Of a DNA stretch of 64,000 bases, positions 1-19,343 are shown piece after piece. The notes below the pieces were generated by a model. The model was not told the origin of the DNA, did no database searches, and worked only from the letters and a program-made list of their open reading frames with translations. The position numbers and the translations under genes are program-made. This stretch comes from Candidatus Woesearchaeota archaeon. Lineage in GTDB: Archaea > Nanobdellota > Nanobdellia > Woesearchaeales > SKGA01. Location of the stretch: positions 24,556-88,555 of the forward strand of contig JAFGOT010000014.1 of assembly GCA_016926395.1 (NCBI GenBank), given 5' to 3'. Position 1 is the first letter of the stretch; each line of letters starts with the position of its first letter.

Positions 1-1751
1 TGAATTAACAGATTAAACGCGGGATACACATAACCATAGTCCCAACCAGCACCAAATTTTTTATCATAATAATCAATTAAAGCTTTGGTTTCTAGGTCTG
101 GACGTGATAATGGAAGACCAATCATGGCAACAACTTTTAATTCGTCGCCTGGGAGATCAATACCTTCGCTGAAATTTCCACCAATAACTCCTAAAAGAAC
201 TGCGCCTGTTTTTTTATACTTTTTAAAATTCGCAATTGTTTCTTCTTTCTCAGAACCATTCATTTCTTGACGTTCATGAAAAACGGTTTTTTCAATCTTT
301 GAAAGATATTTATCAATTTCATCTTTTAGATGATAGCTTGGAAAGAATATTGCACTATTACCTGGAGTTGTATTTGCAATATTAGTAACTATTTCTGCAA
401 TTTCTCTATATTGACTTTCTGAACGTTTAGTGAATTTGGTTGAAGTTTTGGCAATAACCATATTAAGACGATTTTCCTCAGGGAAAGGAGATGGAAACGT
501 CTCTTCACGAGCTTCTTTTGGAAATCCAAGAAGTTCTTTGTACATAGTAGTGGGGGTTAAAGTTCCGCTCATAACAATGGTTGAGTGAGCTTGATCAATA
601 ACTTCTTTAGAAATAAGGGATGGATCTAAACAACGATAGGATAGGGTGATGTTCTCTTGACCGTTTCTTTTTTCACGACTAATAATTCTTGTAAAACCTA
701 AATCGTCACCAAGCCAAGCATCAAGAAAAGAAGCAATACTGCCAATAGCGGATTGTTTTTGTTCTTCACGAATATTATCGGCAACATTATAGAACTCTTC
801 AATAATCTCTTGATAGTTAATTATTTCATTAATGCGTTTTATGAAAATTTCTTTATTAACATAAATTTCATCTTCTCCATCAGGCATCATGTTTGCAAGA
901 ACAGAAGCAATACGTTCGATAACAGTTCCAACATTTTCATAGTTATATTTCTTAGCTTCTCCCATTGCACGTTTTAAAATTCCCATCGATATTTTTTCGG
1001 AAGCTAAATCTTTAATACGGCTTGGGAGATTATGACCTTCATCAATAATTATTATTGAGTCATGAAGATTAATGTCATTTTTTTTAAGAAAATTTTCTCT
1101 AATCTTAGGATGGAACAAATAATAATAATCGGTAATAATAACATTTGACTTTGCAGCAAGAAGCATGGCAATCTCATAGGGACAAACTTTATGATTCCCT
1201 CCAATTTCAACAATCTCTTCAACAGTAACTGGACTTAGGTTGTCAAGTTCAGACATTGCAACCTGTGAATCAGCACTTAGAGCTTCGCCGTTTTTTAAAT
1301 TTTCAAAATATTCGCACTTTTTATCTTCACGCATAGCACGACAATATTCATTAAACTCATTAGTTGCAAGAATAGAAACGCCTGGTTGAATACACATCCA
1401 TTTCTTACCAACAATATCTGTGCCCTTAATTTTAATATTCTGTTTTGAAGAAATTTCTTTAAGAGTTTGAATGGCAATACGATGTTGAGTGTTTCTTGGA
1501 GTTAGAAAAAAAACTACTTTATTATTATCGAGAGCATACTTTAGAGTTGGAGCAATACTTGCAGCAGTTTTACCAAGGCCTGTTGGAGCGTGAATGATTG
1601 CATTTCCTTTTTTCTCAATTTCCTTAAGGATAGATTTAATCATTTCTTCCTGAATTGGACGCATAGAATCATAAGGAAAAAGAATGTTATGTTCAAGTTT
1701 TTTAGAAGGTTCTTTAATAAGTCCTGTATCTGGATCACGCTGTTCAAACAT
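1..1751 (-). CDS. xpd: XPD/Rad3-family (DinG-like) FeS DNA helicase, 3' end beyond window
   Basis: Manual minus-strand translation from ATG at 1749-1751 gives MFEQRD...HAPTGLGKT (Walker A), four Cys in the helicase insert typical of the XPD FeS domain, and IIIDEGHNL (DEAH-like box). The ORF stays open to position 1, so it is not in the supplied ORF track. Confidence 0.8.
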   Translation of the reverse strand, partial: MFEQRDPDTGLIKEPSKKLEHNILFPYDSMRPIQEEMIKSILKEIEKKGNAIIHAPTGLGKTAASIAPTLKYALDNNKVVFFLTPRNTQHRIAIQTLKEISSKQNIKIKGTDIVGKKWMCIQPGVSILATNEFNEYCRAMREDKKCEYFENLKNGEALSADSQVAMSELDNLSPVTVEEIVEIGGNHKVCPYEIAMLLAAKSNVIITDYYYLFHPKIRENFLKKNDINLHDSIIIIDEGHNLPSRIKDLASEKISMGILKRAMGEAKKYNYENVGTVIERIASVLANMMPDGEDEIYVNKEIFIKRINEIINYQEIIEEFYNVADNIREEQKQSAIGSIASFLDAWLGDDLGFTRIISREKRNGQENITLSYRCLDPSLISKEVIDQAHSTIVMSGTLTPTTMYKELLGFPKEAREETFPSPFPEENRLNMVIAKTSTKFTKRSESQYREIAEIVTNIANTTPGNSAIFFPSYHLKDEIDKYLSKIEKTVFHERQEMNGSEKEETIANFKKYKKTGAVLLGVIGGNFSEGIDLPGDELKVVAMIGLPLSRPDLETKALIDYYDKKFGAGWDYGYVYPAFNLLI

Positions 1752-3596: not shown

Positions 3597-3704
3597 TTAA
3601 AAACGTTTCCAGTTTGAAACGAGGGCTAATTTATATTTAACAATAATTTTAAATACTTCAAATTACCAGAAACACTAAGAATTAAGGCTTATGAGGGATT
3701 TTAG

Positions 3705-4079
3705 ATGGGAATCGATTTAACTCCAAGGTGCGTGAAATGCGGACGAGAATTAGACGTTACACAAATGAGAGCTTTACCAGACAATAAAGGGTTTGTTTGT
3801 AAAAGCTGTTACGAACAAGGATCTGCCCCCCCCTCGCCATTTACTGTTAACAAAGACAGATTAAGACCTATTCCCAATGAACCAACTACTTCTAGAAAAA
3901 GAGATGATGACTATGTTGCTAGGGGAGATGACATATTTAACCAAAAAGAGTATGTTTGTAATTCTTGTGGTTATCAATTCAAAAAAAGCTCTGACTTTGT
4001 GGTAAAAGTTTGTCCCTACTGTGGAAAACGAGATGTAGGACAAAAAATAGAACAAAACGCAGACATATTATTGGATTGA
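3705..4079 (+). CDS. double zinc-ribbon protein
   Basis: Two CxxC...CxxC pairs: CVKCG...CKSCY and CNSCG...CPYCG. Confidence 0.45.
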   Translation: MGIDLTPRCVKCGRELDVTQMRALPDNKGFVCKSCYEQGSAPPSPFTVNKDRLRPIPNEPTTSRKRDDDYVARGDDIFNQKEYVCNSCGYQFKKSSDFVVKVCPYCGKRDVGQKIEQNADILLD

Positions 4080-4120
4080 GGAAAACTTAATCTGCAACGG
4101 TTATACCGCGTATATTCTTT

Positions 4121-4146
4121 TTTTTTATAAAAACATTTATATATAG
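4121..4146 (+). promoter_or_regulatory. A/T-rich TATA-box-like element upstream of pilin-like gene
   Basis: tttataaaaacatttatatata lies 20-45 nt upstream of the ATG at 4166, the archaeal promoter spacing expected for a leaderless or short-leader transcript. Confidence 0.25.
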
Positions 4147-4165
4147 AATTTATTAGATTTAAAGC

Positions 4166-4942
4166 ATGGTGTGCGGTAAAAAAGGTCAAATTACTTTGTT
4201 TGTAATAATTGGAATAATTATTCTATTAGTTGCTGGTGTATTTATTTATACTGGGAATCGTGTTAATGGTTCTGACTTTGTTGATAGTATTCTTGATGGT
4301 AGAAACGATCGAAGTTTAGAAGGGTATGTGCAAAGTTGCATGTCGACCGTTGGAAAAGATGCTGTGATGCAGATAACACTCCAAGGGGGGTATTATGAAT
4401 TAGAACTGCCATATTTCAATGCATACTTACTAAGTTCTCCTTATTATCTAAACGAAGGTTTAGTTGAAAACATACCTAGTATAGACACTGTAGAAAGTAA
4501 CCTTGCAAAATACGTTTTTGCAAACCTTCACTCTTGTGTTGGCGAATTTACAGGAGTAAAAAATTATGAACTGATAAACATGACTGCACCAACAATTGAT
4601 GTGCACATCGAAGCTGATGGAGTAACTTTTGTAGTTGATTATGATGCATATTTTAATGATGGAGATAATATTAAAGAAATACAAGCAGTAACTTATAAAT
4701 ATCCCGTTAGAATACCAACATATCTTAATATATCTAAATTATTGGTTGAAAGTTATCTTTATGATCGAGAAGTAAATTATGATGATTTACTTGAAATTTC
4801 TGGAGAATATAATATTGACATATTAACATTTGACTATGGAAATAGCATGTCGTTTGTTTTAGTAGACAAAAATAAAGAATACTATTTTGAGGATGATAAA
4901 CCAGTGATATATACCTTTGCAATAGAAGGAGGGATGATATAA
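4166..4942 (+). CDS. class III signal peptide (archaeal type IV pilin-like) protein
   Basis: N-terminus MVCGKKGQ followed by a long hydrophobic stretch, the KG-Q prepilin pattern. Confidence 0.5.
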   Translation: MVCGKKGQITLFVIIGIIILLVAGVFIYTGNRVNGSDFVDSILDGRNDRSLEGYVQSCMSTVGKDAVMQITLQGGYYELELPYFNAYLLSSPYYLNEGLVENIPSIDTVESNLAKYVFANLHSCVGEFTGVKNYELINMTAPTIDVHIEADGVTFVVDYDAYFNDGDNIKEIQAVTYKYPVRIPTYLNISKLLVESYLYDREVNYDDLLEISGEYNIDILTFDYGNSMSFVLVDKNKEYYFEDDKPVIYTFAIEGGMI

Positions 4943-4943
4943 A

Positions 4944-7900
4944 ATGAAAAAACTAATTGTGTTAATATTAATGTTCCTTCTTAGTTTGGCGATTGTCAAT
5001 GCAGCTGTTCAAACACCTGAGATTACAACCCCTCTTAATGTAATTCCTTTCACTGTTTTTAGTGCTCAACTGGTTGAATCTGGATTGGTAACGCCCATTA
5101 TAACTGAAGTTGAAAGTCCAAAATTAGGATATGGTCCAGTTGGTGCTGTAGTTGATGATTTTTATGTTAATAATATTGCATTTTCAATAACTGATTTATT
5201 ATCTTCAGGATTTGTGTCGATGGAAGTTTATGAAAACGAAATAATTCTAAAAACATCTGATTCAAAATCTCTAACTTTAATTAGTCACACTCAAAAACCA
5301 ATAAAAATATCTAACTTTCAAGGTTTTGGAGATTTTACGCTTGGTGAAAAAACATTTGGTTTAAAGTCCGGAGTAACTAACATATTAGTTGACGTGTTTG
5401 ATGAAAATAAGTTTGTAACTTTAGTTGTTGATAAAGATAAGAATATTTATGCGATGCCTTTAGAACTTTCTAAATCTATTTATTTAGGTGAAGCATTAAA
5501 ACAAGGTGAATATTATTTTATTAATATATTTGTGGATGAAAAGTATTCGTTTAAGACAAAATCAGAAGATATCTTAGCTGATCCAACAAATTCTTCTAGT
5601 CTTTTGAATTATTACTTTGCTTTCAAAAGTTCTTTTGAAAATGAGAATGCAGGCGAATATATGTCAACAGTTCCTTTTCTAAAATCAGATGGAACTGTTT
5701 TTGGTTTTGCAAATGGAAACAAAAAAATAAATAATGAACTAGTAATCTCATCTGATGGGGGGAATAAACCTGATTATGTTTTTAATCCAATAGATAAATC
5801 TGTTTATTTGATTGAAGATAATTATCCAACTTCAATATTTGCTGTGAAATTTCCTGATGGTGTAGATTCTAAAGCATCTCTAATTGATGTTAGTGATAAC
5901 AATTATTATTTAGCACAACTAGAAACAAACGTACAAAAAGAAGAGGGCTATACTTTTAGTCCAAGACTAACATTACAATTTTCTAATTTTCCAGGAGTGG
6001 AAATGTTAAGTGCGTCATTTGTAAGAGAAAAAGATGGAAAATTATACAATGATCCTTACTCTTCATGGAAAGGGGAATTCTGTGAGAATCAAGTAGAGTT
6101 AAAAAATAAAGCAGTATCTTCAATAGGTGTAACTTACTTAGCAAATGAGTGTGAAGGTTCAATATTTAGTTTGACTCCCTCCAACACAATAGAAAACGGC
6201 GATTTAACGAGTTCTCTAAGAGATAAAAAAACTGAAACTATTGCTTTTGGAAGCAGTGCATTTAGATTATTAAGATATGACTTATTGTCTTTTCAAAAAG
6301 GAGTAGTTAAACATGAACCGATGGGTTTTACAAAACCTCTTCTTGTCTGGGGAGCTCCTGATAAAATATTAACATATTATGATGGTGCTGGAAACTTAGC
6401 TTGTTTAGTGGTTCCTCCAATGAGAAGTTCTGTTATGAAACTAACGGGAAAGGGAGGACAACTTGATACTAGTTCAAAAGTTCCTGTTGTATTAGCATTT
6501 TCACAAGATGCAGTAAAAGTGTGTTCAAGTAAAAAAATTGTAGATGACTTAATTAGTGTTGGTTATAGTGTAGATATAAAAGATTCAAGATCTTTGCCTT
6601 ATGTTTCTTATAGTTTAACATCAGAAACACTAAACCCAAACAATATTCCTGCAATAGATACTTCTGTTAAACAAGCATCAACAAAATTAAATGAATTGAT
6701 GTTAAAACAACAACTACCAATAGTTCTTGTGAAAGAAAATTTTGAAATTACTCCTTTATCAGGTCCAATTTATATTGAAACCACTCTTAATGGCTTTGAT
6801 GGGGTAATAAATACTATTACTGATCCTAAGGTTGTTAAAGAGCTTAACAAAGAAAAAACAACTGGTGAAACAGGAAATATACTAAATGATTTTAAACAAA
6901 AAAATCCTGATGTAGTTAACTATTTTAATCAAAAGGAAGAACCTATTGTAAATCAAAATTCTAATAATAAAAAAGAAGATTTATCCGATAAAGAAGTTGT
7001 AAAAGAAAAAACTGAAGAATTCAAAAAACCAAAAAATGAAGAAGCATCAACAAAAGAAAAATACACTCAAGCATCTAATGTTATAACTTCTTCTCTTCCA
7101 GGAAATAGTGTTAATTTAAATGATGGTTTAAATAAACTCTTAAACGATCCTGCTTTGTTTTCTGATATTAATAAAATGGCGGATTTGCTTGGTTTGCTTG
7201 AATCAACAAATAACGAACAAAAAATAAAAACTGCTACGATAGATGAAAACACTAATGTAATAACTAATGGAAAAAATGTTGTAGTCTCAAAAAAAGTAAA
7301 ATCCAAACAAGAAATGATAAATGATCAACACAAAGAAATACTTACTAATGTTGCTAATAAACGAGGTGTTGATTACGAAGTTGTAAGAAAGGAATGGAAA
7401 GAAGGAAAAATTAATGCTTTTGATTTGAAAGGTGATGATGTTTATGATAATTACAAAAATGATGTTAAACAATTAAACGATATTGTGAATGAAAATTATG
7501 AAGAAGTAGAAGCAGAAGTGGATAATTATGTTCAAAGAACAGAACGTGAAAAAGTAATTCCAATCCAAGCGAGAGGAAATGCTCTTGTTGTAGCTTATGT
7601 TTCCGAAAATGAAGCGAAAAAACACGGGGCTAATTTTGCTTTTGAACTTGAAAACATGATTAATCTAATAAAAAAAGCAAATGATTTGAATATTCCTGTG
7701 TTTATTATTGAACAAGAATCTCAGAATGTAACTATCAAAAATGACGGCAAAAATAAAGTCGTGCAATGGCAAGAATTTGATGTTCTAAAAGAAATAAATG
7801 CTTTAATGGTTCCTGAAACATGGACTTTTGTAAGTTCTAAAAACGATGTTGGTTCCATATTTGATAATTCAAATCTTGGAGAATTATTAAAAGAAAACAA

Positions 7901-8972
7901 CATTGATACTATTACTTTAGCTGGTTGGGATCAACAATTTGCACTAAGAGAAACAATAATTGACGCTAAAGAAAAAGGCTATAGAATATTTACTAGTTTT
8001 GATATCATACAAGGTTCAATAATTGGTGAACAAGAAAAAGTACGAGATCGAAAAGAAAAACAAAGATGGGAAGATAGTCAGCTAACACCTTTTGAAAAAG
8101 GAACGAGTGAATATGTTTCTGTTAATAAAGGAAAAACATTATTTAAAACAATAGACAGTGATGCAAGAAACGGAAACACAGGAGAAATAGTGGAGAGATA
8201 CAGTCCTGAGTCATTACTTAAATTTTATGAACAAAATACTAACTTAGTTGATTCATACAAGCAAATTCCTTTCTACTCTTTAGAACCAACTTATGAAGAT
8301 GTTGTAATAAGAGAAGAGAAAATAAAACCAAAAACTTCAAGCACAACAACGGCTGCTGACAAACCAACTCCAAAAGTTGATGAAAAAGAAGTTTTAAAAC
8401 AAAAACAAGACTTAATACGTCAAGAACAAGAGAAAAATCTAAAGAAAATAAAAATTCAAAGAGACTTGATGACAGAAAGAATTGAAGCAGTATGTTATGG
8501 TTATGAATTAAAGGGAATTGGTAAAAACCAAATAGCTGTTCAAGCATATCCTGATTTTAGTTCGGACCCAAAAATAGAACGAGAATGTGATAATTGGAAA
8601 TCAATAAACGGTGGTCGAAGAAGTGTTAGTGATGTTCCTTCTAATTTGCAATATGCTGGTTATGATGCTGATTTAGCAGAATGGAACTCTTTACTAGCTG
8701 AACGAGATAATTTGATGAAACAAGCAAGGGATCCTTCTAAAGTTTTAGCTTATACTGATGGCGACTATGAAATTATTGAATGTACTTGCAGTCCAACTGG
8801 AAAATGTTCTTATCCAAGCAATCTTTTGGGAGTGACTTGCGAGACTTGTTGCGCTTCCGGAGACCAATTTGGTGATTATAAAATTATAGAATGTACTTGT
8901 GCTTCAGGAAGTAAATGTTCTTATCCAAGCAATTTACTTGGTGGCTCATGTGAAAAATGCTGCAAAGCATAA
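4944..8972 (+). CDS. large secreted surface protein (1342 aa) with C-terminal tandem Cys-rich repeat
   Basis: Sec-type signal MKKLIVLILMFLLSLAIVNA; Asn/Lys-rich; ends with two ~30-aa modules IIECTC..KCSYPSNLLG..CE.CC; starts 2 nt after the pilin-like gene. Confidence 0.6.
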   Translation: MKKLIVLILMFLLSLAIVNAAVQTPEITTPLNVIPFTVFSAQLVESGLVTPIITEVESPKLGYGPVGAVVDDFYVNNIAFSITDLLSSGFVSMEVYENEIILKTSDSKSLTLISHTQKPIKISNFQGFGDFTLGEKTFGLKSGVTNILVDVFDENKFVTLVVDKDKNIYAMPLELSKSIYLGEALKQGEYYFINIFVDEKYSFKTKSEDILADPTNSSSLLNYYFAFKSSFENENAGEYMSTVPFLKSDGTVFGFANGNKKINNELVISSDGGNKPDYVFNPIDKSVYLIEDNYPTSIFAVKFPDGVDSKASLIDVSDNNYYLAQLETNVQKEEGYTFSPRLTLQFSNFPGVEMLSASFVREKDGKLYNDPYSSWKGEFCENQVELKNKAVSSIGVTYLANECEGSIFSLTPSNTIENGDLTSSLRDKKTETIAFGSSAFRLLRYDLLSFQKGVVKHEPMGFTKPLLVWGAPDKILTYYDGAGNLACLVVPPMRSSVMKLTGKGGQLDTSSKVPVVLAFSQDAVKVCSSKKIVDDLISVGYSVDIKDSRSLPYVSYSLTSETLNPNNIPAIDTSVKQASTKLNELMLKQQLPIVLVKENFEITPLSGPIYIETTLNGFDGVINTITDPKVVKELNKEKTTGETGNILNDFKQKNPDVVNYFNQKEEPIVNQNSNNKKEDLSDKEVVKEKTEEFKKPKNEEASTKEKYTQASNVITSSLPGNSVNLNDGLNKLLNDPALFSDINKMADLLGLLESTNNEQKIKTATIDENTNVITNGKNVVVSKKVKSKQEMINDQHKEILTNVANKRGVDYEVVRKEWKEGKINAFDLKGDDVYDNYKNDVKQLNDIVNENYEEVEAEVDNYVQRTEREKVIPIQARGNALVVAYVSENEAKKHGANFAFELENMINLIKKANDLNIPVFIIEQESQNVTIKNDGKNKVVQWQEFDVLKEINALMVPETWTFVSSKNDVGSIFDNSNLGELLKENNIDTITLAGWDQQFALRETIIDAKEKGYRIFTSFDIIQGSIIGEQEKVRDRKEKQRWEDSQLTPFEKGTSEYVSVNKGKTLFKTIDSDARNGNTGEIVERYSPESLLKFYEQNTNLVDSYKQIPFYSLEPTYEDVVIREEKIKPKTSSTTTAADKPTPKVDEKEVLKQKQDLIRQEQEKNLKKIKIQRDLMTERIEAVCYGYELKGIGKNQIAVQAYPDFSSDPKIERECDNWKSINGGRRSVSDVPSNLQYAGYDADLAEWNSLLAERDNLMKQARDPSKVLAYTDGDYEIIECTCSPTGKCSYPSNLLGVTCETCCASGDQFGDYKIIECTCASGSKCSYPSNLLGGSCEKCCKA
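8763..8969 (+). repeat. tandem direct repeat (~100 nt period) encoding duplicated Cys-rich module
   Basis: attgaatgtacttg...aaatgttcttatccaagcaat occurs twice in the nucleotide sequence. Confidence 0.7.
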
Positions 8973-9022: not shown

Positions 9023-10297
9023 CTATTTACTAGGTCTTATTTCTGTTATTCCCATCATGTAAGGATGAAGGACTTTAGGAATAGAAACACTGCCATCTTC
9101 GTTTTGGAAAGTTTCAAGAATAGTAACTAAACCACGAGATGTTGCAATAGCGGTATTGTTAAGAGTGTGAGGAGTAAACTTCTCGCCCTTATCCTCAGCT
9201 CTAATTCCAAGACCTCTAGCTTGATGAGTGGTAAGATTAGAACAACTACCAACTTCAATCCATTCATCTCGACGAGGAGAATAAACTTCAACATCATATT
9301 GTATGTGTTTTAGAACTCCAAGGTCGCCAGTACAAATTTGAAGAGTACGAGTAGGAAGACCAAGAGAAGTAAAAATCTCAACAGTAATTCCCCACATTTC
9401 ATCAAAGAACTTCATAGATTCTTCAGGCTTACAAATAACAACCATCTCAACCTTATTGAACTGGTGAGTTCTGAATAATCCTTTTTCGTCAAGGCCATGA
9501 CTGCCTTTTTCTCGACGGAAACACATAGAGTAAGAAGTGTGCTTTATAGGAAGTTTCTGTGCCGGGATAAGTTGACCAACATAACGACCAATAAGAGCAT
9601 GTTCAGAAGTACCTATTAAGTATAAGTCTTCATCTTCAATCTTGTAAATCATAGCTTCCTGGTCATTAAGATCAGTAACAAAGTCAATGATATTTTTTCT
9701 AAGCATCAGAGGAGTTTCAACATAGTGAAAACCTTTTTTATGCATAGTTTCAATAGCATAACGAATAAGAGCCTGATTTAGCAAAGCAAGTTCACCTTCC
9801 AAATAATAAAAACCAGCACCAGAAGTCTTAGCAGAAGATTCAAAATCAGCAACGCCTAAATCTTCAGCAAGAATTTGATGAGGTTTAACTTCTTTTTTAA
9901 CAGGCTCAGGTCCAAAACGTTTAACTTCAACATTTTCACTATCGTCTTTTCCTTGAGGAACAGATTCATGCATAAGATTAGGGATTTTCTTTAACTGAAG
10001 CTTGATTTCTTCGTATAATTTGTCAGCCTTATCTTCAATATCCTTAATTTCTTGAGGGATGGACTTAGCTCTCTCTAAAGCTTCACTAGCATCTTTACCC
10101 GCTTTTTTAAGATCGTTAATCTCTTTAGAGACTTTATTACGTTCAGAACGAAGGTCGTCAGCTTGTTTTTTAAGAGTACGCCATTCTTGATCGGAAGAAG
10201 AGACTACATCGACTATGGAGGTATCTGCATAGCCCTTCCTAATCATGTTGTCTTTAACTACTTGAGGTTCTTCTCGAATCAAGTTTATATCCATCAT
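9023..10297 (-). CDS. serS: seryl-tRNA synthetase
   Basis: N-terminal coiled-coil arm plus class II core motifs (FRRE.., GLPTRTLQICTGDLG, SCSNLTTHQARGLGIR). Confidence 0.95.
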   Translation of the reverse strand: MMDINLIREEPQVVKDNMIRKGYADTSIVDVVSSSDQEWRTLKKQADDLRSERNKVSKEINDLKKAGKDASEALERAKSIPQEIKDIEDKADKLYEEIKLQLKKIPNLMHESVPQGKDDSENVEVKRFGPEPVKKEVKPHQILAEDLGVADFESSAKTSGAGFYYLEGELALLNQALIRYAIETMHKKGFHYVETPLMLRKNIIDFVTDLNDQEAMIYKIEDEDLYLIGTSEHALIGRYVGQLIPAQKLPIKHTSYSMCFRREKGSHGLDEKGLFRTHQFNKVEMVVICKPEESMKFFDEMWGITVEIFTSLGLPTRTLQICTGDLGVLKHIQYDVEVYSPRRDEWIEVGSCSNLTTHQARGLGIRAEDKGEKFTPHTLNNTAIATSRGLVTILETFQNEDGSVSIPKVLHPYMMGITEIRPSK

Positions 10298-10585
10298 TGT
10301 AATACTTGTAAAATCAGAGGAGATTTATAAATATGGGGGTTTGAATGCTTTTTATTGTTCGTATATGTTGAATTCTATTGAGCTTGTTATGAAGCTTATT
10401 CTTGTTATTATCAATGAATATTCTTTATTCTCTATTTTGAATGTTGTTGAATCTCCCACATAAACTTCGCTAAAATTTTTTTCTAGATTGAAGTTTATTT
10501 TCGCTTGTTGATTAACATTAACATCAATAAGTCCCAATATGAATTTTCCATTAAATAGTGTTTTGCTATTGCCTTTTGTTATGAT

Positions 10586-10840
10586 TCATGGTTCGTTGTT
10601 TGGGACTCTTAGTTCACTTATTTGTTTAATTTCTTTTTCTTCAGTTATATTTTCTTCTAATAGTGTTTGTGTTATGATGTTACCGGTGTTAATTGAGTTG
10701 TTAATTCCATTAATAATTATTTGATTGTTTTCGTTATTTGTTGTTTTTCCTATGTTGCTATTCATTAATCCTATTATTGCTGCTATAAAGAGGATGATTG
10801 CTGTAATAAGACTTATTGTTTTTGTTGTTTTTATTTTCAC
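10586..10840 (-). CDS. small Asn-rich membrane-anchored/secreted protein
   Basis: N-terminal hydrophobic helix, then N/I/T-rich region. Confidence 0.3.
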   Translation of the reverse strand: MKIKTTKTISLITAIILFIAAIIGLMNSNIGKTTNNENNQIIINGINNSINTGNIITQTLLEENITEEKEIKQISELRVPNNEP

Positions 10841-10859
10841 TTTTGTTTTTTCCTATTCT

Positions 10860-11162
10860 TTATTTTTTACTTAATGCCGAAAGTAACCAAATAAGTCCTA
10901 ATCCTATTAATGCTCCTTGACTAACTTTTAACTTTGCAGATTGTTCTGCTAATTCTCGTTGCATGTTGTTGTTCATCTGAACGTATTTTACTCGTTCGTT
11001 TCTTTCTTGTTCTAGTTGTTGGTTCGCTTTATGCGCTTCTTGGTCGCTAGTTAAAAGAATTTTTAGCAGTTCTGGTTGGTTTTTTAGTTCGTCAATAACT
11101 TTTTGAGGGTCTTTCTCAAAATGTTCCATTAATTGTTTTCTTAATTCATTTGTTAATGTCAT
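10860..11162 (-). CDS. coiled-coil protein with C-terminal TM anchor
   Basis: Charged helical sequence ending in GALIGLGLIWLLSALSKK. Confidence 0.35.
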   Translation of the reverse strand: MTLTNELRKQLMEHFEKDPQKVIDELKNQPELLKILLTSDQEAHKANQQLEQERNERVKYVQMNNNMQRELAEQSAKLKVSQGALIGLGLIWLLSALSKK

Positions 11163-11634
11163 ATTTGATATATTTGTTTATTATTTTATAAATTTTTCTG
11201 TTTATGTTTATAAATAAATTAAAATTTGAGAATGAATTGGGTAAATTGAGAAAATTTTCAGGACACCTTTTTTGGTGTTTAATGGGCGTGTCTGGTGTAA
11301 TGTTCGTGGTAGTTTAATTAAGCTGAGCTGTTGGCTAAAAGTCCATCTCTAATCTCATTCTATCGAAACGATATTAATGCTTAACTAATTTATTTTGTTT
11401 TATTTTTAGTTCCTGGAGTTTTTCGCTTTGGTTCGTATCTTTTTTCGTGTTCTTGTTTACTTTGTCTTTTTCGATCTCGAGGACCTTTTTTTGTTAAATC
11501 ATCTGGCATTTTTTATCACCAGTTTATTTTGGTCATTTTTTTGATTTAAACTTTATTCTTGTTTTAGGATATTTTTCATTGGTTATCCCAAACTCTAAAT
11601 AAAGTATTTAAATTGGATTTTCCCTATTTTATTT

Positions 11635-12984
11635 ATGGATGTTCCTTTAGTGCAAATAAGTCCTGACTTAATTTCTTTTGACCCTCAAAATCCCCGGTCA
11701 GAATCTTCTGAGAAAATAGAGACGGATTATAAATTCACTCAACTTAAAAAATCAATTGAGTTATTTGGTGTTTTTGTTCCTCTAATTGTAAGACAAGTAA
11801 AATCAAAAACAAAACCTTATCGTTTGGTTGATGGAGAAAGACGTTTGAGAGCTGCTTTAGCATGTAACAAGCCCTTTGTTCCTGTTCACATAATTGATGG
11901 TAATGGTGAGCGGGCTAAGGTTTTGGCTTATCAAATACATATGAACAGAAAAGATTGGACCAAATTAGCGGAACTAAAATCAATAAAGGATATTGTTCAT
12001 GAAATAAAACTTAAGAATGATGATGATGATTTTGTTCGTAAAGAGCTTTGTGATAAAACCAGCATGGACTTAGCTCATGCTACTGATATTTTAACAATTT
12101 TGAAGTATGATTCTGAAACTATAAAAAAAGTTGAAGAGGGTTTAATTTATAGAAGTTATTTTATAGAATTAGAACGTTATTTTATACCTGCTTTAAAAAC
12201 TGATTTTCTTTCTTTGTATAACCATTATGGAGAAAAGAGATTAAGGAAGATTTTATCAAAAAAAGCTGAAGAAATAAAATTGGGAAAAACAAGTTTTTTA
12301 AGAAATAATTTTATTAAACCTTATTTTGAAAATATTATTGACAAGCCTAAGTTGAGGCGTGTTATTAAAGATTTTCTTGATAATCCTGATCGTGATTTAC
12401 GAGATAGTGTTAAGAAATTGGAACGTCGATCAAGTAAAGTTAAGAAAGCTTCTAAGAAAAAGTCTTCTAAACAAAGACCGGTTGTTGATGTTATTGAGGT
12501 TCCAGATGAAATTGACCACTTAGTCAAGCTTTTCGATATTGAGAAGCTCTTAATTTCTTCTAATGTTTTTGATTCTATATTTAATAATTTAAAACAAGCC
12601 ATTGTCGAATTTGAAAGGAGAACAGGATATTTAGTGACTAATGAAATAAAACTTCAAAATGTTATTTACACTGTTTTAAGATCTTTGTTTAAGTCAACAG
12701 AGTTTGAGAATCCTACTGGTAAAGTTTGTTCTACAAGCAGTAAAGTAGATTTTATTTTAAAAAAGCATGGCATTGTAATAGAGATTAAGTATGTTAGAGA
12801 TCGTCGTCATGCTAAAAATATTCATGATGAATTAGCTATTGATTATGCCAGATATAGGCTTTCTCCTGATTGTAATAAAATAATTAATTATGTTTATGAC
12901 CCAAATAATTTTATTACCAATCCTGATTTGACTGTTTCGGAATTGAAAAAGTCTCTTCCGGAAGCTAATCATTATGTTCAGTAG
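11635..12984 (+). CDS. ParB/Srx-domain protein fused to C-terminal PD-(D/E)xK-like putative nuclease domain
   Basis: N-terminal FDPQNPR...FGVFVPLIV...YRLVDGERRLRAA is the canonical ParB N-domain. The C-terminal ~100 aa has ..KVDFILKK..IVIEIKYV.. (D...E.K spacing of the restriction-endonuclease fold). Confidence 0.6.
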   Translation: MDVPLVQISPDLISFDPQNPRSESSEKIETDYKFTQLKKSIELFGVFVPLIVRQVKSKTKPYRLVDGERRLRAALACNKPFVPVHIIDGNGERAKVLAYQIHMNRKDWTKLAELKSIKDIVHEIKLKNDDDDFVRKELCDKTSMDLAHATDILTILKYDSETIKKVEEGLIYRSYFIELERYFIPALKTDFLSLYNHYGEKRLRKILSKKAEEIKLGKTSFLRNNFIKPYFENIIDKPKLRRVIKDFLDNPDRDLRDSVKKLERRSSKVKKASKKKSSKQRPVVDVIEVPDEIDHLVKLFDIEKLLISSNVFDSIFNNLKQAIVEFERRTGYLVTNEIKLQNVIYTVLRSLFKSTEFENPTGKVCSTSSKVDFILKKHGIVIEIKYVRDRRHAKNIHDELAIDYARYRLSPDCNKIINYVYDPNNFITNPDLTVSELKKSLPEANHYVQ

Positions 12985-12992
12985 TTATTAAA

Positions 12993-14123
12993 ATGAAAAA
13001 CATTCTTTTAGTCGAACCTGATTTTCCTGTTTCTAAGAAAAGTAAGAATCATTCTAATTTTCTTCCTATTGGTCTACTTAAATTAGCATCTTATCATCGT
13101 AAGCAAGGCAATAAAGCAAAACTTATTCGAGGTTTGAAAAAAGCACATTTTACGCCTGATAGAATTTTGATAACTTCTTTGTTTACTTATTGGTCTGATT
13201 ATGTTAGAGATGCAGTGCAATTTTACAAACAAGCTTATCCTTCTGCTAAAGTCGAAGTTGGTGGAATTTATGCAAGTTTAATGCCGAAGCATTGCAAATA
13301 TTTTACTGGTTGCGATAAAGTTGTTGTTGGTCAATTAAAAATGGCAGATAAGTGTAAACCTGCTTATGATTTAGTTAATGTTGATTATCAAATTATTCAT
13401 GGGATGAGAGGTTGTATTAGACAGTGTTCTTTTTGTGGTATTTGGAGACTTGAAAAGAACTCTTTCAAAACTGCAGAAGAAATTAAAAAAGAGATTTGTT
13501 TTAATAAGTTAGTTTTTTATGATAATAATATGTTAGTTAATCCTCATATTGAAGAAATTCTTGAAATGTTAGCAACAACAACTTATAATGGTAAAGTTCT
13601 TAATTGTGAGTGTCAAAGTGGTTTTGATGGTAGAATTCTTGCCGAAAAACCTCATTTGGCAGAATTATTAAAAAAAGCTAGATTTAAAGATATTCGTTTG
13701 GCTTGGGATTGGGGTGTTAAAACTTATCCGGTTGTTGAAAAGTGGTTAACTATTCTTGATAATGCTGGTTTTAGTAGAAAATCGGTTTTCTTATTTATGA
13801 TTTATAATTGGGATTTTAAATTTGAAGAAATGGAAGAAAAAAGAAAAAAATGCTATGAATGGGGGGTGCAAATTGCTGATTGTAGGTTTAGACCCCTTAA
13901 TCAATTATTTGACAGATATAATGGTCGTATAAAACAAACAAATATTGATTATTTTATTCATAAATATTGGACCGATTATCAAGTAAAGAGATTTAGAAAG
14001 AATGTTCGTTTGCAAAATATTTGTATACGTTATAACATTCCTATTGAAAATTATCGAAAGGAGTTGGAGGGTACTCGCTCTTCTTCAAAAAAATTAGTTG
14101 AATTTGGTTCTATGGTTTCTTAG
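12993..14123 (+). CDS. B12-binding-domain radical SAM enzyme
   Basis: N-terminal LLVEPDF...PIGLLKLASY cobalamin-binding-like Rossmann segment; CIRQCSFC = CxxxCxxC radical SAM cluster motif; starts 8 nt after the ParB-fusion gene. Confidence 0.7.
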   Translation: MKNILLVEPDFPVSKKSKNHSNFLPIGLLKLASYHRKQGNKAKLIRGLKKAHFTPDRILITSLFTYWSDYVRDAVQFYKQAYPSAKVEVGGIYASLMPKHCKYFTGCDKVVVGQLKMADKCKPAYDLVNVDYQIIHGMRGCIRQCSFCGIWRLEKNSFKTAEEIKKEICFNKLVFYDNNMLVNPHIEEILEMLATTTYNGKVLNCECQSGFDGRILAEKPHLAELLKKARFKDIRLAWDWGVKTYPVVEKWLTILDNAGFSRKSVFLFMIYNWDFKFEEMEEKRKKCYEWGVQIADCRFRPLNQLFDRYNGRIKQTNIDYFIHKYWTDYQVKRFRKNVRLQNICIRYNIPIENYRKELEGTRSSSKKLVEFGSMVS

Positions 14124-14181
14124 AGTGTGCACTGGTCAGTTGATGATCCATTTTTTAAGTTTTAATCTTACTATCTTTGTT

Positions 14182-14388
14182 ATGAGTCGATATATTATTC
14201 TCGAAATTGGTAAGTCCGCATATACTGAGTTTAAGAAAAAATCAGGAGATTTTGAAGAAACTTGTGATGCTATTCTTGTTGATGATTTGGATGCTGATTC
14301 AAAAGAAGATGCTTATAATCAAATGTTTTCAAAAGAAGAGCATTCTGATAAAGATTTTGACCAATTAGTTGTTCTTGAGGTTGTTTGA
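14182..14388 (+). CDS. small acidic hypothetical protein
   Basis: Second in-frame Met of ORF 14098-14388; the upstream part overlaps the radical SAM 3' end and is probably not coding. Confidence 0.3.
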   Translation: MSRYIILEIGKSAYTEFKKKSGDFEETCDAILVDDLDADSKEDAYNQMFSKEEHSDKDFDQLVVLEVV

Positions 14389-14430
14389 TATTCTAAACAT
14401 TTATTAACTAACGAGTCAAATTTTTATTTT

Positions 14431-15200
14431 ATGGATTTGCATATGTTTCAGCAATCAGTCTTGGATTCATATACTAGTAATTCTCAAAAAGCTCGAGTAT
14501 TAACGGAAAATTGGTTTGCTTCTCAAATGTACTGTCCTTGTTGTTTGAAACCTAAGATTTCTGTTTACAATAATAATAAAAAAGTAAGTGACTTTTTTTG
14601 TGATTCTTGTAGAAATGATTTTCAATTAAAAAGTTCTAAAAACCGTTCGGGCGTAAAGTTTTAGATGGGGAGTATAATACTATGATTTCTGCTGTTGATT
14701 CGGGTTCATCTCCTAGCTTTTTTATTCTTCACTACTCTTCCGAGGATTGGGTGGTTAAATCACTTTCTTTGATTCCTAAATTTTTTGTAACACATTCGAT
14801 GATTGAAAAACGAAAACCTTTGTCTTCTACTGCTAGAAGAGCGGGTTGGACTGGTTGTAATTTTTTGTTAGACAAACTTCCTTTAGAGGGGAATATTCCT
14901 ATTGTTATTAACGAGAAAATTCAAGATAAAACAAAAGTTAATGCACTTTGGAATAAAATGTTTTTTATGAATTCTAAGAGACCTTCTTTTAGGGGTTGGA
15001 CTTCTGATGTGCTGAAAGTTGTTCAAGAACAAGATTCGTCCTTTTCTTTATCCGACATTTATTTGTATGACTCCTACTTTAAAGAATTACATCCTGAAAA
15101 TAATAATATTAGAGCGAAGATAAGGCAACAGTTACAAATTCTTAGAGATAATAAAATTATTAGATTTAAAGGAAATGGTATTTATGAGAAATTAAAATAA
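14431..15200 (+). pseudogene. DpnI-like (Dam-replacing family) methyl-directed Type IIM restriction endonuclease, split by 1-nt frameshift in A5 run
   Basis: The two ORFs (77 aa + 172 aa) collinearly match the recalled DpnI sequence: YTSNSQKARVLTENW, CPCC, SDFFCDSCRNDFQLKS, then KPLSSTARRAGWTGCN and KIRQQLQILRDNKIIRFKGNGIYEKL. Frame switches at aaaaa 14638-14642; an A6 there would restore SKKPFGRKVLDGEY in one frame. Confidence 0.8.
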
Positions 15201-15205
15201 TGTTT

Positions 15206-15820
15206 TTAATCAAATAATCCTTTTATTCCGCTAACAATATCTTTACCAACATCTGAAATTGTGTCTACAACATTGTTTACAACTTGTTTTACACTTTCGA
15301 CAGCTTCTTTTACTTCTTCAACAATAAAATTTCTGACTATTTCTGTTAGTTCAATTTGTTGAGAAAAATGTTTTTTGATAAGAATTGGTTTTTCCATTAT
15401 TATTATGTCGCCTTCCAGAGTTGCATAAGTTTTCTTCATAGTAATAAGGTTTTTGGCAACTTCACTGCTCATGTGCCAATCTAATCTTTGACTAACTTTT
15501 ATTATTGTCATATCCCGAGGTCTTAATGTTGTTTTACCTATTTCTCCTTCTGAACGATATTCATTAAAACTCACTGAATAGTCAACTCTTTTAGCAGATA
15601 TTCTAAAAATGCTTGGATTGTAAACATAAACATCAGCATGAATTGTGAAGCCATCTAGAGAAACGTCTGTTATGTCTGTTATTTCCGTATTCTTAACTTC
15701 TATATTTTTTATTGATTGAATGTAAAATATTCCAAAACTAATTAAGATAATAGTTATTGGTATTAAAATACTAAAAATTATTGTTGTTGTTTTACTCATC
15801 GGACATAAATCTCCAACCAC
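15206..15820 (-). CDS. membrane-anchored LEA_2/WHy (NDR1/HIN1-like) domain protein
   Basis: N-terminal TM then beta-rich domain with the NPS/NPN motif region (VYVYNPSIFRISAKRVDYSV). Confidence 0.4.
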   Translation of the reverse strand: MVGDLCPMSKTTTIIFSILIPITIILISFGIFYIQSIKNIEVKNTEITDITDVSLDGFTIHADVYVYNPSIFRISAKRVDYSVSFNEYRSEGEIGKTTLRPRDMTIIKVSQRLDWHMSSEVAKNLITMKKTYATLEGDIIIMEKPILIKKHFSQQIELTEIVRNFIVEEVKEAVESVKQVVNNVVDTISDVGKDIVSGIKGLFD

Positions 15821-16538
15821 TATTTTTTGGCTCTAGTTCTGCGTATAGTTCTTGTCCCCACTCTTGGATATCCGTAAATGCTAAACCCGCATTTTTGTAA
15901 ACCCAGTCAATTTCTTCAGAGATTTTTTTTACTGCTTGTTTATCATCTGTTTTTATTGCTGATTCATAACTATTGGAGAAACCATTATTTGTGAAATTTA
16001 TCGAACCTAGAAATGCGTGTTCATTATCTATGACATAAACTTTAGAATGAATTAAATATCCTCGCCCTCCATTTTCATCTTCTCTACTACTAAATATTTT
16101 TAGTTTGAATATTGGTTTGTATTTGTATTCGTTTGTTCTCATAGTAAAGAATATTATTGCTGATATTATTGCTCCTAAAACTAGAATTAATAATGCTGGT
16201 GCTGCGAAAGATAAAAATAACATAAACATACCTATTCCTGAGCTTATCCAGAATCCGTTTTTTCGAGTTTGAACTTTTTGGTCATGGATGATTTGTTCTT
16301 GTTCTATAATTTCTGTAGGATCAAAACTATTATCTCTGTTATTTGCAAGATTATCAGATGTTATTAATGTAATTTTAACCCCTTTTTTGTGGAGTTTAAT
16401 TAATTCTCTTATATAATTTGTCGACAAATATGGAGAAACTATTTTAACTTCTTTTTTGGCTCTTTGTATTACATTGAGGCAATGAGAACCCGCGTCTCGA
16501 CCTAAGAAGATTGAACAGTTGGCTTTGTTTATGAACAT
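15792..16538 (-). CDS. phospholipase D/HKD-family protein (Nuc-like) with internal TM hairpin
   Basis: HSKVYVIDNEHAFLGSINFTNNG = HxK(x)4D(x)6GSxN; single HKD motif; two hydrophobic helices mid-protein. Confidence 0.6.
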   Translation of the reverse strand: MFINKANCSIFLGRDAGSHCLNVIQRAKKEVKIVSPYLSTNYIRELIKLHKKGVKITLITSDNLANNRDNSFDPTEIIEQEQIIHDQKVQTRKNGFWISSGIGMFMLFLSFAAPALLILVLGAIISAIIFFTMRTNEYKYKPIFKLKIFSSREDENGGRGYLIHSKVYVIDNEHAFLGSINFTNNGFSNSYESAIKTDDKQAVKKISEEIDWVYKNAGLAFTDIQEWGQELYAELEPKNSGWRFMSDE

Positions 16539-16595
16539 ATGTGAACTTTTGACTTTTCCTTATTTAAGGTTTTTGTTCAGAATGGGATAACCCCT

Positions 16596-17090
16596 TTAAT
16601 AATCATCATCGGGGTAGAAGTCATCATCGTCTTGGAATTTGTTTAATCTGAAATTGTTAATCTTTGGGATTATTGGAGGGATTATTGGTGGTAGTGGTTT
16701 GTTAAACGAGCTGTTGAATTTGTTATTAAATCCATCATCATAATCATCATCGAACTGTTTATTTCCAAAATTAGTATTTATTGGTGGGATGTATGGTTTA
16801 TTGTATGAGCTGTTAAATGAATCATGTAGATCTCTTCGTCTGTCTTCTTCCATTCTGTCAAACATTTCTTGTTGTTGTATTCTTTGTTCTTCTTTTCTGT
16901 CTAGTTCTCTTTGTCTTGCTTTTTCTTGTTGACCTTTAACTAAATTATCGTATTCTCTGCAGGCTCCTTCCCATTGTTTAATAAAAAAATAACTACCTGC
17001 GCCTGTTCCTGGATGTCTTCCTGGTCCGCTTCTAAGAAGATTTCTTTGATATGGTGTCAAACCATCATCGTCATCATCAAAATAGCTCAT
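16596..17090 (-). CDS. hypothetical low-complexity protein with poly-Asp termini
   Basis: Long ORF, DDDDD at both ends, Q/E/R-rich core, PPIIPPIIP repeat. Confidence 0.3.
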   Translation of the reverse strand: MSYFDDDDDGLTPYQRNLLRSGPGRHPGTGAGSYFFIKQWEGACREYDNLVKGQQEKARQRELDRKEEQRIQQQEMFDRMEEDRRRDLHDSFNSSYNKPYIPPINTNFGNKQFDDDYDDGFNNKFNSSFNKPLPPIIPPIIPKINNFRLNKFQDDDDFYPDDDY

Positions 17091-17132
17091 AATAGACCTA
17101 TTTGGTTTAGAATTTATAATATTTGTGTCTTT

Positions 17133-19343
17133 TTAAGGCTGATACTTAAGCTCTTTCTTTGTGCCTGAGGCTTTGTTTGCTTTCTTCTTTTTCTCTATTT
17201 CTTTTGAGAAGTCGTGATTTTCATAATCTGGATACTTTGGCTCTTTTGTGCTTAGTCTTAATGCAATTTTTTTTATTGTGGATATTATTATTTTAAGAAT
17301 AATTATAATCATAATTACTAAACTCACAACAGATATTATGGTTGCAACTTCCATTGTTGAATCATTCTCGTCAAGTCCTAAAACTCTAGCAATAAACTTT
17401 GTGACTTTTGCGTTGACTACGTTTGTTGCAACCATTGCCTTTTGAACTGGTGTTAAGTTAACGAGCTTTGTGGTTTCTACTGCCTCAATTACTTGTCGCT
17501 CTCCATAACTATCAGTGTATTCTATTTCTATTACTATGTCATTTTCATTAAAACCAAGATTACTTCCTGCTAATGTAAATTCAAACTGTTTGTTTTCATC
17601 AAAAACAGGAAAATTCCATTCTTGAATAAATAGAGGATGTTTAACTCTAACAATCGCATCCTTAGCCGAAGCAAATGATTCTTTATTTACTTGAATTGTT
17701 AATGCTTTTTGATCTTTAAATCCTATTGTGTCATCAATGCTAACATTTCCTATACTCAGTTTTGCATTATCAATTGCTTTAAATGTTACATAAATATCTG
17801 CGCTAGTGCCTTTTTTGGTTTGGGTTAAAGTTAATGTTCTAACACCTATTTTCTCAGCACTATAAGTAAATGTAACTTCATCATTTAGGTTTTCGATCTT
17901 TTTACAATTAACATCAAGACAGACACGAAGTGGAAGCTGTGCATCAAGGAAAGGAGAGCAGGTTATTTCAATAGTATCATTAATCATAACTTGACCAGGA
18001 GAAGAACAATAAACTTCAACAGGAATTTTTTGGTCTTCACTGATTAAAAATTGACTCATATAATTCTTGCCATAAATTTCTCCTCTATCAAGAACGGTAA
18101 CTTTTGTCGTTGCTGGTCCTCCTTCAACATATGCTGTGAACGGATATGTATAAATCATGTATGGGTCAAGATTAGAGCTTGACTTGATTAAGAAAGGTAT
18201 TGTCTTAACCTCATATGGTTCTAAAAAAATAAATTGTGTAAGTGGTCCTTCTTGTTCTATTTCTAAAGTGTTGGCCATCTGAACAAATTCAACAATATAA
18301 TGGTTGGCAGTATTTTTAATCTCTAAATAAATAACATCATATGATCCAAAACCAATTGCTTCCTCTTCAGCATAAAGACGAGTCTTTGTAGCTTTATCTT
18401 TGAAAGGTCCTGTTTTTATAACGTCTGTTGCGAATTCTAAACTTCCTGTGTTAACATCGTATGTGTCTTGTTGACCTTTATGAGAATACTTTATGCTATT
18501 GCTTGAACCATCAACATCTTTACGAAGAGAAATGTGACTTGCATCAACATAACCTAACTGTCTATATGTGATATCAAATGGAACCCAACCAACATCGGGG
18601 AAATAAACTTCAGCCCAACCATGATTGCCCCAAGGATAATCAAACAAATCAGAATCAGTATATGCGACGCCTGAAACGAAACGAGCAGGAACGCCAAGTT
18701 CTCTGTTAAACGAGATGAACAAATTAGTTATTTCATCACAAACACCCCGTCTCTCTTTCATAACCCACGAAGAAGGTTCATTAGCATCGGCAGTTACTGA
18801 ACTAAGATTGTATTGAATGTTATCTTCAACCCAAGTTGCAAGAAAAAACTCAAGCTCAAACAAATCATCGATTCCATTTGCTAGATTACTTGCTTGTTGT
18901 CGGATATCATTATTAGAATCAATACTTTCTGTGAACTCAGTATATTTAGCAACATCATTAGGGATGTCGGTTATTGGAAAAGGTATTTTTTTAGTTATTG
19001 GAGTTCTTGTTCCTTGAGTTTGAATTACAGATTCAATATTAAAACCAATATAGTTCTTAGAATAACCCTCTTCTCTAAATGTTATTTTGTCATCTTCAAT
19101 TTTATATGGTGTTGGTTTGAATGCAGAAGAAATAACTTCCTGACGATACGTATTTTGAGGAACTAAATAAAGAGTAGAATCAAAATATTCCATAACAACA
19201 GGAATTTTAAGAGGAATGATGTTGATATCATTTTCAATAGTCTGCTTTAAGGTCATAGACTCATATTGAGTATATTCATTAGCACTTGCTAGAGAAATCA
19301 ATAGTAAGAATATAATAAAAATAAACAAACCTCTTTTCATCAA
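17133..19343 (-). CDS. large secreted transglutaminase-like cysteine protease-fold protein with C-terminal TM anchor
   Basis: Signal peptide MMKRGLFIFIIFLLLISLASA; transglutaminase core ERRGVCDE...GNHGWAEVYFPDVGWVPFD (Cys-His-Asp); C-terminal TM plus Lys-rich tail. Confidence 0.7.
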   Translation of the reverse strand: MMKRGLFIFIIFLLLISLASANEYTQYESMTLKQTIENDINIIPLKIPVVMEYFDSTLYLVPQNTYRQEVISSAFKPTPYKIEDDKITFREEGYSKNYIGFNIESVIQTQGTRTPITKKIPFPITDIPNDVAKYTEFTESIDSNNDIRQQASNLANGIDDLFELEFFLATWVEDNIQYNLSSVTADANEPSSWVMKERRGVCDEITNLFISFNRELGVPARFVSGVAYTDSDLFDYPWGNHGWAEVYFPDVGWVPFDITYRQLGYVDASHISLRKDVDGSSNSIKYSHKGQQDTYDVNTGSLEFATDVIKTGPFKDKATKTRLYAEEEAIGFGSYDVIYLEIKNTANHYIVEFVQMANTLEIEQEGPLTQFIFLEPYEVKTIPFLIKSSSNLDPYMIYTYPFTAYVEGGPATTKVTVLDRGEIYGKNYMSQFLISEDQKIPVEVYCSSPGQVMINDTIEITCSPFLDAQLPLRVCLDVNCKKIENLNDEVTFTYSAEKIGVRTLTLTQTKKGTSADIYVTFKAIDNAKLSIGNVSIDDTIGFKDQKALTIQVNKESFASAKDAIVRVKHPLFIQEWNFPVFDENKQFEFTLAGSNLGFNENDIVIEIEYTDSYGERQVIEAVETTKLVNLTPVQKAMVATNVVNAKVTKFIARVLGLDENDSTMEVATIISVVSLVIMIIIILKIIISTIKKIALRLSTKEPKYPDYENHDFSKEIEKKKKANKASGTKKELKYQP

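Follow-up and report, generated by a model that had tools for sequence, protein, structure and literature searches.

The stretch of DNA analyzed here (64 kb in total, hereafter called the window; 32% GC) carries two open reading frames of 77 and 172 aa that lie on the same strand in frames one base apart. By descent, this locus belongs to the DpnI family, and as assembled it is not a functional gene: an uninterrupted reading frame is absent, with a 1-nt deletion at 14638-14642 and a stop codon at 14662-14664. A small gene for an acidic protein, here termed the partner, precedes it. The features at the locus are as follows.

14182..14388, plus strand: partner gene, intact, 68 aa, pI 4.2, NCBI JXA48_02070 (hypothetical)
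14400..14407, plus strand: TATA-box-like element TTTATTAA, about 27 nt upstream of the ATG of the DpnI-like gene
14431..14664, plus strand: N-terminal fragment ORF, 77 aa; residues 1-70 are native and are followed by 7 out-of-frame residues and TAG; includes E26, the Cys4 zinc site, D54, and Q65-x-K67
14638..14642, plus strand: A5 tract and site of the 1-nt deletion; ancestral A6 (AAA AAA, Lys70-Lys71)
14640..15200, plus strand: remainder of the coding sequence (C-terminal), shifted to the -1 frame and encoding residues 71-256 of the repaired protein; holds the remaining PD-(D/E)XK core, the recognition loop (R127, L130, R136, W139, and G141), and the winged-helix domain
14682..15200, plus strand: the listed 172-aa ORF, which begins at an internal ATG (Met85)

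Both ORFs are present as described in the original prediction, and the frame indeed switches at the A tract, where positions 14638 to 14642 read exactly AAAAA. Adding one A fuses the two ORFs and restores the conserved SKKPFG sequence, with a junction that reads ...FQLKSSKKPFGRKVLDGEYNTMISAV... (longer excerpt, ...NDFQLKSSKKPFGRKVLDGEYNTM...). The resulting single ORF encodes 256 aa rather than the 249 to 250 aa that had been anticipated, because 7 out-of-frame residues end the 77-aa ORF, the 172-aa ORF starts at Met85, and residues 71-84 intervene. In the A5 allele, the frame shifts after codon 70 and the stop codon is reached 7 codons later. A tblastn search of the window found no second DpnI-like copy. 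The proposed archaeal host agrees with NCBI, where the identical 172-aa product (JXA48_02080) is listed under a Candidatus Woesearchaeota archaeon MAG. The element at 14400..14407 is probably the archaeal promoter of the DpnI-like gene, and an identical or very similar motif lies at the same distance upstream of intact relatives (loci L002, L003, L004, L006, and L009 of our collection).

Assignment of the two ORFs to the DpnI, or Dam-replacing, family had been based on a collinear match, and Pfam, PDB 4ESJ, PADLOC, and the predicted fold all agree with this view. The repaired protein matches PF06044 (DpnI) with an E value of 1.5e-66 and 223.9 bits (cut-off of 26.7) and PF17726 (DpnI_C, winged helix) with an E value of 4.6e-26 and 91.2 bits (cut-off of 23). 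Each fragment also passes the PF06044 gathering score by itself (92.0 and 99.9 bits), with the 77-aa fragment covering profile positions 4-70 (4.6e-26) and the C-terminal fragment covering positions 85-182 plus PF17726. When aligned with R.DpnI (PDB 4ESJ/4KYW), the repaired protein matches over residues 1-255 (E = 1.2e-65) and shows no gap at the junction, which places the lesion at the A tract. The CxxC...CxxC pairs and the KIRQQLQILRD motif that had been pointed out earlier are both found in the 4ESJ alignment and the family alignment. Likewise, the PADLOC model mREase_II (methyl-directed type II restriction endonuclease) gives a full-length match (4.3e-80). Furthermore, an AF2 model of the repaired protein (pLDDT of 91.2) was placed on 4ESJ by Foldseek with E values of 1e-26 to 4e-28, TM scores of 0.84-0.89, and an rmsd of 2.5-2.6 Å. 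A resemblance to DpnI of this strength is far greater than chance would produce.

Biochemical and structural work on DpnI provides a list of residues that can be compared with the window protein. D53, E64, and K66 are needed for activity (E64A is inactive), E25 is a catalytic glutamate, and four cysteines hold a zinc ion (Siwek 2012, PMC3424567). The GATC sequence is read by Q18, N48, D78, R126, and R135, the methyl pocket is formed by L129, R135, W138, and G140, and K229 and R231 of the winged helix also matter (Mierzejewska 2014, PMC4117772). To assess these positions, DpnI and the window protein were aligned with 117 close homologues and 130 representatives of 50%-identity clusters. The window protein retains E26, D54, and K67 as the equivalents of DpnI E25, D53, and K66, and its C35, C38, C57, and C60 align with the zinc-site cysteines C34, C37, C56, and C59. 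All GATC-reading and methyl-pocket residues (Q18, N48, D78, R126, L129, R135, W138, and G140) are identical, and the equivalents of K229 and R231 are kept.

The sole departure from the listed functional residues of DpnI is at E64, which is Q65 in the window protein (codon 14623-14625). In place of the catalytic ExK motif, the protein thus carries QxK, which is a common family variant. A glutamine occupies this position in 108 of the 117 close homologues and in 60 of the 130 cluster representatives, versus 66 representatives with E. This distribution suggests that the DpnI family motif is best written as D...(E/Q)XK, with Q as a standard family variant. We considered Q65 as a sign of a dead enzyme and rejected this possibility because the family as a whole has E and Q at similar frequencies. 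HinP1I has QXK as well. Furthermore, a survey of m6A-dependent endonucleases gives PD-QXK as the motif of Mrr-type nucleases, such that Q at the (D/E)XK position appears compatible with families treated as active (PMC11037411). These nucleases are unrelated in sequence and serve as a precedent for Q65 only. Even for the repaired protein with its Q65, activity is a prediction from sequence.

To locate the origin of the break, the locus can be compared with its intact relatives. The best homologues are intact proteins of 256 aa that are 68-72% identical to the repaired protein and come from metagenomes and from Woesearchaeota/Nanoarchaeota MAGs. No relative closer than 72% identity was found, and the best one (72%) is intact. 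A scan of GTDB species representatives returned four relatives only, and the genome that contains the window was not among the matches. At the site homologous to the break, L002 and L003 read TCT AAA AAA CC (TCTAAAAAACC) and L010 reads TCC AAA AAA CC (TCCAAAAAACC), which are A6 tracts, and L005 (TCAAAAAAACC) and L011 (TCTAAAAAAAT) have A7. The Lys-Lys pair is encoded by AAG AAA in L006-L008, and L004 has AAA TCT (Lys-Ser). Of 10 close intact relatives, 5 therefore have an A6 or A7 tract at this position. The window reads TCT AAA AAC CG, and comparison with the A6 relatives indicates that it has lost one A from the Lys-Lys tract.

The remainder of the gene is in excellent condition. The window protein matches the clade consensus in 60 of the 60 columns that are conserved at 95% or more, whereas intact relatives miss 0.62 of these columns on average, and both halves of the protein are equally similar to the relatives (0.70 and 0.71). 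Because the gene shows no other decay, the mutation is either very recent or represents an “off” allele in the population. The same lack of decay would fit equally well with an intact gene that carries a consensus error, or with a reversible switch. We favor, as the probable explanation, a DpnI-family type IIM restriction endonuclease gene of Woesearchaeota that lacks one A of an A6 tract and is thus a recent null allele or is in an “off” state.

If the break were instead a sequencing or assembly indel, the true genome would have A6 and the gene would be intact and active. A single-base break within a homopolymer of an otherwise flawless gene is what such an error would produce, and the intact partner gene and the retained promoter-like box also fit. 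However, a Logan assembly of SRR13394436 includes an 8,734-bp contig that is identical to window positions 9909-18642, with A5 included and with the same split (73 aa plus 172 aa). The two assemblies thus agree base for base over 8.7 kb and were made by different pipelines, but they may derive from the same reads. Furthermore, the 52 long ORFs that span 88% of the window hold 578 uninterrupted homopolymer runs of at least 5 nt (275 of at least 6 nt and 104 of at least 7 nt), and therefore the consensus is not prone to indels. A run of 5-6 nt is also short for Illumina-type consensus errors. Two agreeing assemblies and the 578 uninterrupted runs together make an assembly error unlikely. The original prediction had offered a pseudogene, phase variation, or a sequencing error as explanations for the break. 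These options have been narrowed rather than fully separated, and the last of them has lost most of its appeal.

Slip-strand phase variation would mean that the population is mixed for a nuclease that could be toxic to its own host, with A6 as the on allele and A5 as the off allele, and that the off allele happened to be the one assembled. Restriction genes are well-known examples of contingency loci, the A6 or A7 tract falls precisely at the break site in half of the ten close relatives, and the undamaged condition of the remaining gene fits an allele that is reversible or very young. Typical contingency tracts have 7-8 nt or more, however, and the tract at this locus is short by this standard. 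The AAG AAA codons of L006-L008 and the Lys-Ser of L004 indicate that the tract is not maintained by selection. Likewise, no further frameshifted allele was observed among the 120 homologues listed or the 80 metagenome loci, and no A5, A6, or A7 version of the sequence was matched when the metagenome collection was scanned for exact patterns. We consider this explanation to be about as improbable as a sequencing indel.

Production of a full-length enzyme directly from the A5 allele, through a programmed -1 ribosomal frameshift or transcriptional slippage, is an even more remote proposition. A -1 shift on U AAA AAC would yield exactly the conserved SKKPFG, but the heptamer U_AAA_AAC does not conform to the canonical X_XXY_YYZ pattern. 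The fold of the 98 nt downstream is no better than that of shuffled sequences (z = +1.18; 179 of 200 shuffles are at least as stable), and all relatives examined are in frame, so the shift is not conserved. Efficient transcriptional slippage needs roughly 9 or more As, and A5 is far below this length. Programmed -1 frameshifting was rejected on the basis of the noncanonical heptamer, the absence of a stable downstream fold, and the in-frame relatives.

It is only slightly less far-fetched that the fragments are used as such, for example with the 172-aa product serving as a reader of Gm6ATC that does not cut. The isolated winged-helix domain of DpnI is by itself specific for Gm6ATC (PMC4117772), and the second ORF begins with the ATG of the invariant Met85, 17 nt past the first stop codon. 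However, full-length proteins conserve Met85 too, and there it is an ordinary structural residue. In the AF2 model, the break coincides with the end of the QxK strand (E63-69) and lies inside the core sheet, which makes a working split enzyme improbable. The cut would cross the core beta-sheet in this model and leave the N-terminal part of the 172-aa product without its fold partners. Furthermore, the shorter proteins among the homologues listed are two N-terminal fragments of 185-212 aa that come from short contigs and lack the winged helix, and the remaining ones are all about 250-290 aa.

Returning to the loss of one A from an intact DpnI-type gene, the A5 allele would give no active enzyme, since the shift lies directly behind the Q-x-K beta-strand and translation would stop 7 codons on. 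The 77-aa piece and any 172-aa product made by re-initiation would probably be nonfunctional. The conservation of residues suggests that the intact enzyme would work like R.DpnI, as a monomer with a Cys4 zinc site in which fully methylated Gm6ATC would be recognized twice, once by the catalytic domain and once by the C-terminal winged helix, with cleavage occurring within the site. In a host without m6A in its GATC sites, such an enzyme would destroy incoming Dam-methylated DNA and spare the unmethylated resident genome. None of the plausible ORFs of the 64-kb window encodes the N6A/N4C methyltransferase motif [DNS]PP[YFWH], and no methyltransferase or DpnII remnant was found in this window. 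Orphan methyltransferases of the Dam-like type that act on GATC are a persistent feature of Methanobacterium, Methanococcus maripaludis, Halorubraceae, Methanomicrobiales, and Nitrososphaerota (PMC10609329), which makes Dam-methylated archaeal or viral DNA a plausible target.

GATC is moderately depleted in the window, with 118 sites versus 196 expected (ratio of 0.60), and is its second most depleted 4-nt palindrome after CGCG. The depletion is stronger in L002-L004, L006, and L007, where the observed/expected ratio is 0.17-0.29. This depletion suggests that these lineages may have had long exposure to GATC-targeting restriction.

Several relatives carry remains of another GATC-specific system around the DpnI-like gene. 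Loci L002 and L003 have this gene and its partner flanked by a truncated DPPY methyltransferase gene on one side and a DpnII gene on the other. The methyltransferase ends right after motif I (PF01555 profile positions 1-199 of 221), and the N-terminus of DpnII is in frame after the stop codon of the partner and has no start codon. The DpnII gene of L008 retains residues 60-293 (59 residues are missing), and that of L006 retains residues 203-293 only, as a 91-residue relic. The remnants are located as follows.

L002: methyltransferase 1904-2596 and DpnII 3608-4489
L003: methyltransferase 5271-5963 and DpnII 6975-7856
L006: DpnII 7017-7289
L008: DpnII 6986-7690

From its sequence, this arrangement looks like the displacement of a DpnII-type GATC system by a DpnI-type cassette in these four loci. 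The truncated methyltransferases and the DpnII relics support the view that these enzymes are genuinely incompatible with m6A methylation of GATC. In bacteria, inactivated m6A/m4C methyltransferases are found adjacent to DpnI-like genes according to a recent survey (Helbrecht et al. 2024, PMC11037411).

The partner gene accompanies many of the intact relatives. It lies upstream of the DpnI-like gene in the window, whereas in relatives it lies immediately downstream, so that the order is swapped. A partner gene is found directly downstream of an intact DpnI-like gene in L002-L008, L010, L011, L093, and L094 (for example, at 3401-3607 in L002; 6768-6974 in L003, L006, and L008; 6768-6977 in L010; 1792-2004 in L011; 4827-5069 in L093; and 3148-3357 in L094), and for most of them there is a 4-nt overlap between the partner start and the DpnI-like stop codon. 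The window partner shares 51-57% identity with the 68-69-aa ORF overlapping this stop codon in L002-L008 and L010. Some DPANN DpnI-like genes have no partner beside them (L009 and L102-L104). A total of 72 partner homologues were found, and those with a named source are from Woesearchaeota/Nanoarchaeota.

None of the 72 partner homologues has a Pfam domain. The AF2 model of the partner is of high confidence (pLDDT of 92.6) and has a beta-beta-beta-beta-alpha-beta order, and a Foldseek search of the PDB with this model gave nothing below E = 0.69. Likewise, no match with an E value below 0.1 came from a profile search of the PDB. We examined DpnD/PcfM (PF14207) as a candidate identity and found it to be unsupported, given that only 1 of 49 family members matches (E = 0.019) and that the PDB sequence and fold searches were empty. 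The Pfam scan also matched DUF1381 to 9 of the 49 members (best E = 0.023). Our guess would be that the partner is an inhibitor or regulator. In L012, a different small acidic protein (56 aa; 663-833, plus strand) is encoded downstream of a 65%-identical DpnI-like gene and is followed by a ParB_N gene. This 56-aa protein has no detectable similarity to the 68-aa partner family.

The wider neighborhood of the DpnI-like gene in the window includes the following genes.

11635..12984, plus strand: ParB_N plus DpnII/MboI-type restriction-fold gene (PF18742, 1.5e-26; PF02195, 1e-10)
12993..14123, plus strand: B12-binding/radical-SAM gene (matches below the Pfam cut-off; CxxxCxxC motif)
15206..15820, minus strand: LEA_2-like protein, 204 aa, overlapping the PLD-family gene
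15792..16538, minus strand: PLD-family nuclease-like protein, 248 aa (PLDc_2, 1.4e-20; weak DrmC, NucT, and NgoFVII-N matches; hydrophobic insert)

The gene for the PLD-family protein is convergent with the DpnI-like gene, and the region around 15206..16538 looks, together with the other genes, like a small defense island. The ParB_N-nuclease family is rare, with 67 matches in 5.8 billion proteins. PADLOC gave no match for the radical-SAM protein. The ParB_N and radical-SAM genes are a two-gene module that is conserved in archaea and in one Planctomycetes contig (L092). The pair is also kept in L091, where an intact N6_N4 methyltransferase gene lies upstream. A member of the radical-SAM family (46% identical, E = 5e-108) directly precedes the DpnI-like gene and partner in L093, and in L040 a member lies beside a GHKL ATPase gene and is divergent from the DpnI-like gene. 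A ParB_N homologue follows the DpnI-like gene in L012. The 333-aa protein encoded in L093 showed no similarity to the ParB_N-nuclease by BLASTP. These ParB_N and radical-SAM genes are located at 5001-7482 in L091, 5001-7519 in L092, 5001-8636 in L095, 2442-3905 in L093, 3-422 (minus strand) in L040, and 1130-1885 in L012.

Thus, the ParB_N or radical-SAM family adjoins a DpnI-like gene in four independent loci (the window, L093, L040, and L012). This recurrence may reflect a defense-island effect or a functional link. Tentatively, and with considerable doubt, the DpnI-like gene and its partner can be read as a mobile cassette that is tied to the ParB_N/radical-SAM pair, which together form a four-gene, same-strand cluster at 11635..15200. 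Under this joint reading, the cluster could be an undescribed system that combines a methyl-dependent nuclease with a radical-SAM DNA-modifying module, the partner might be an inhibitor or regulator of the nuclease, and the frameshift in the A tract might be its off switch. A search for flanking repeats or cassette ends across 11000-16800 found only short, low-identity repeats that are typical of AT-rich DNA, and no tRNA gene was found near the locus. We also considered a viral cassette and set this idea aside, because the viral contigs contain no relative of the radical-SAM protein and provide one full-length but distant match only to the DpnI-like protein.

Two other neighbors of intact DpnI-like genes were noted. 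In L009, a 763-aa HARE-HTH plus DndB protein is encoded directly upstream (3646-5937, plus strand), and in L005 a convergent MutL gene lies downstream (6992-8941, minus strand).

Among characterized enzymes, the closest counterpart of the window protein is R.DpnI of Streptococcus pneumoniae (type IIM, PDB 4ESJ/4KYW). The two proteins are about 41-43% identical and share a two-domain architecture, a nearly equal length (256 versus 254 aa), and the fold, as well as the Cys4 zinc site, the E25/D53/K66 equivalents, the GATC-reading residues, the W138 methyl pocket, and the winged-helix K229/R231. The window gene differs from that of R.DpnI in being broken by a 1-nt deletion, in its DPANN archaeal host, in having QxK for ExK, and in its partner, which is a 68-aa acidic protein without detectable similarity to DpnD.

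The exchange of DpnI and DpnII cassettes is an established part of pneumococcal biology, and we take the neisserial dam-replacing gene (drg/NmeBII) to be a comparable system. DpnI and DpnII are alternative systems in pneumococci (PMC3573125). Similar to those cassettes, the DpnI-like gene and partner of L002, L003, L006, and L008 occupy a former GATC methyltransferase/DpnII site, and the remnants at these sites indicate that a methyl-dependent cassette displaced a methyl-protecting one. In contrast to the pneumococcal case, the window lacks a methyltransferase or DpnII remnant, its DpnI-like gene is itself broken, and the hosts are archaeal. The locus also resembles the PD-(D/E)XK-wH m6A-dependent endonucleases in its family and, as far as its relatives are concerned, in the inactivated adjacent methyltransferases (PMC11037411). 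In the text consulted, archaea are mentioned only for HNH fusions, and nothing is said of this DPANN clade, of the partner, or of the radical-SAM neighborhood.

The locus is an ordinary, recently broken member of the well-known DpnI family. Its direct value is small, since it adds a broken copy to a well-characterized enzyme family, and the leads toward novelty are the obligate-looking 68-aa partner and the recurrent ParB_N/radical-SAM neighbors only. The DpnI-like search returned 7,730 homologues, and the closest of those with a named source are mostly from Woesearchaeota, Pacearchaeota, Nanoarchaeota, and Aenigmarchaeota. DpnI-type restriction that depends on Gm6ATC, as predicted from these proteins, thus appears to be widespread and well conserved in DPANN archaea. 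Archaeal lineages with Dam-like GATC methylation could be the hosts, the neighbors, or the sources of the viruses that such enzymes would encounter (PMC10609329). DpnI-like genes also turn over quickly in these organisms, both through cassette displacement of DpnII systems and through homopolymer knock-outs.
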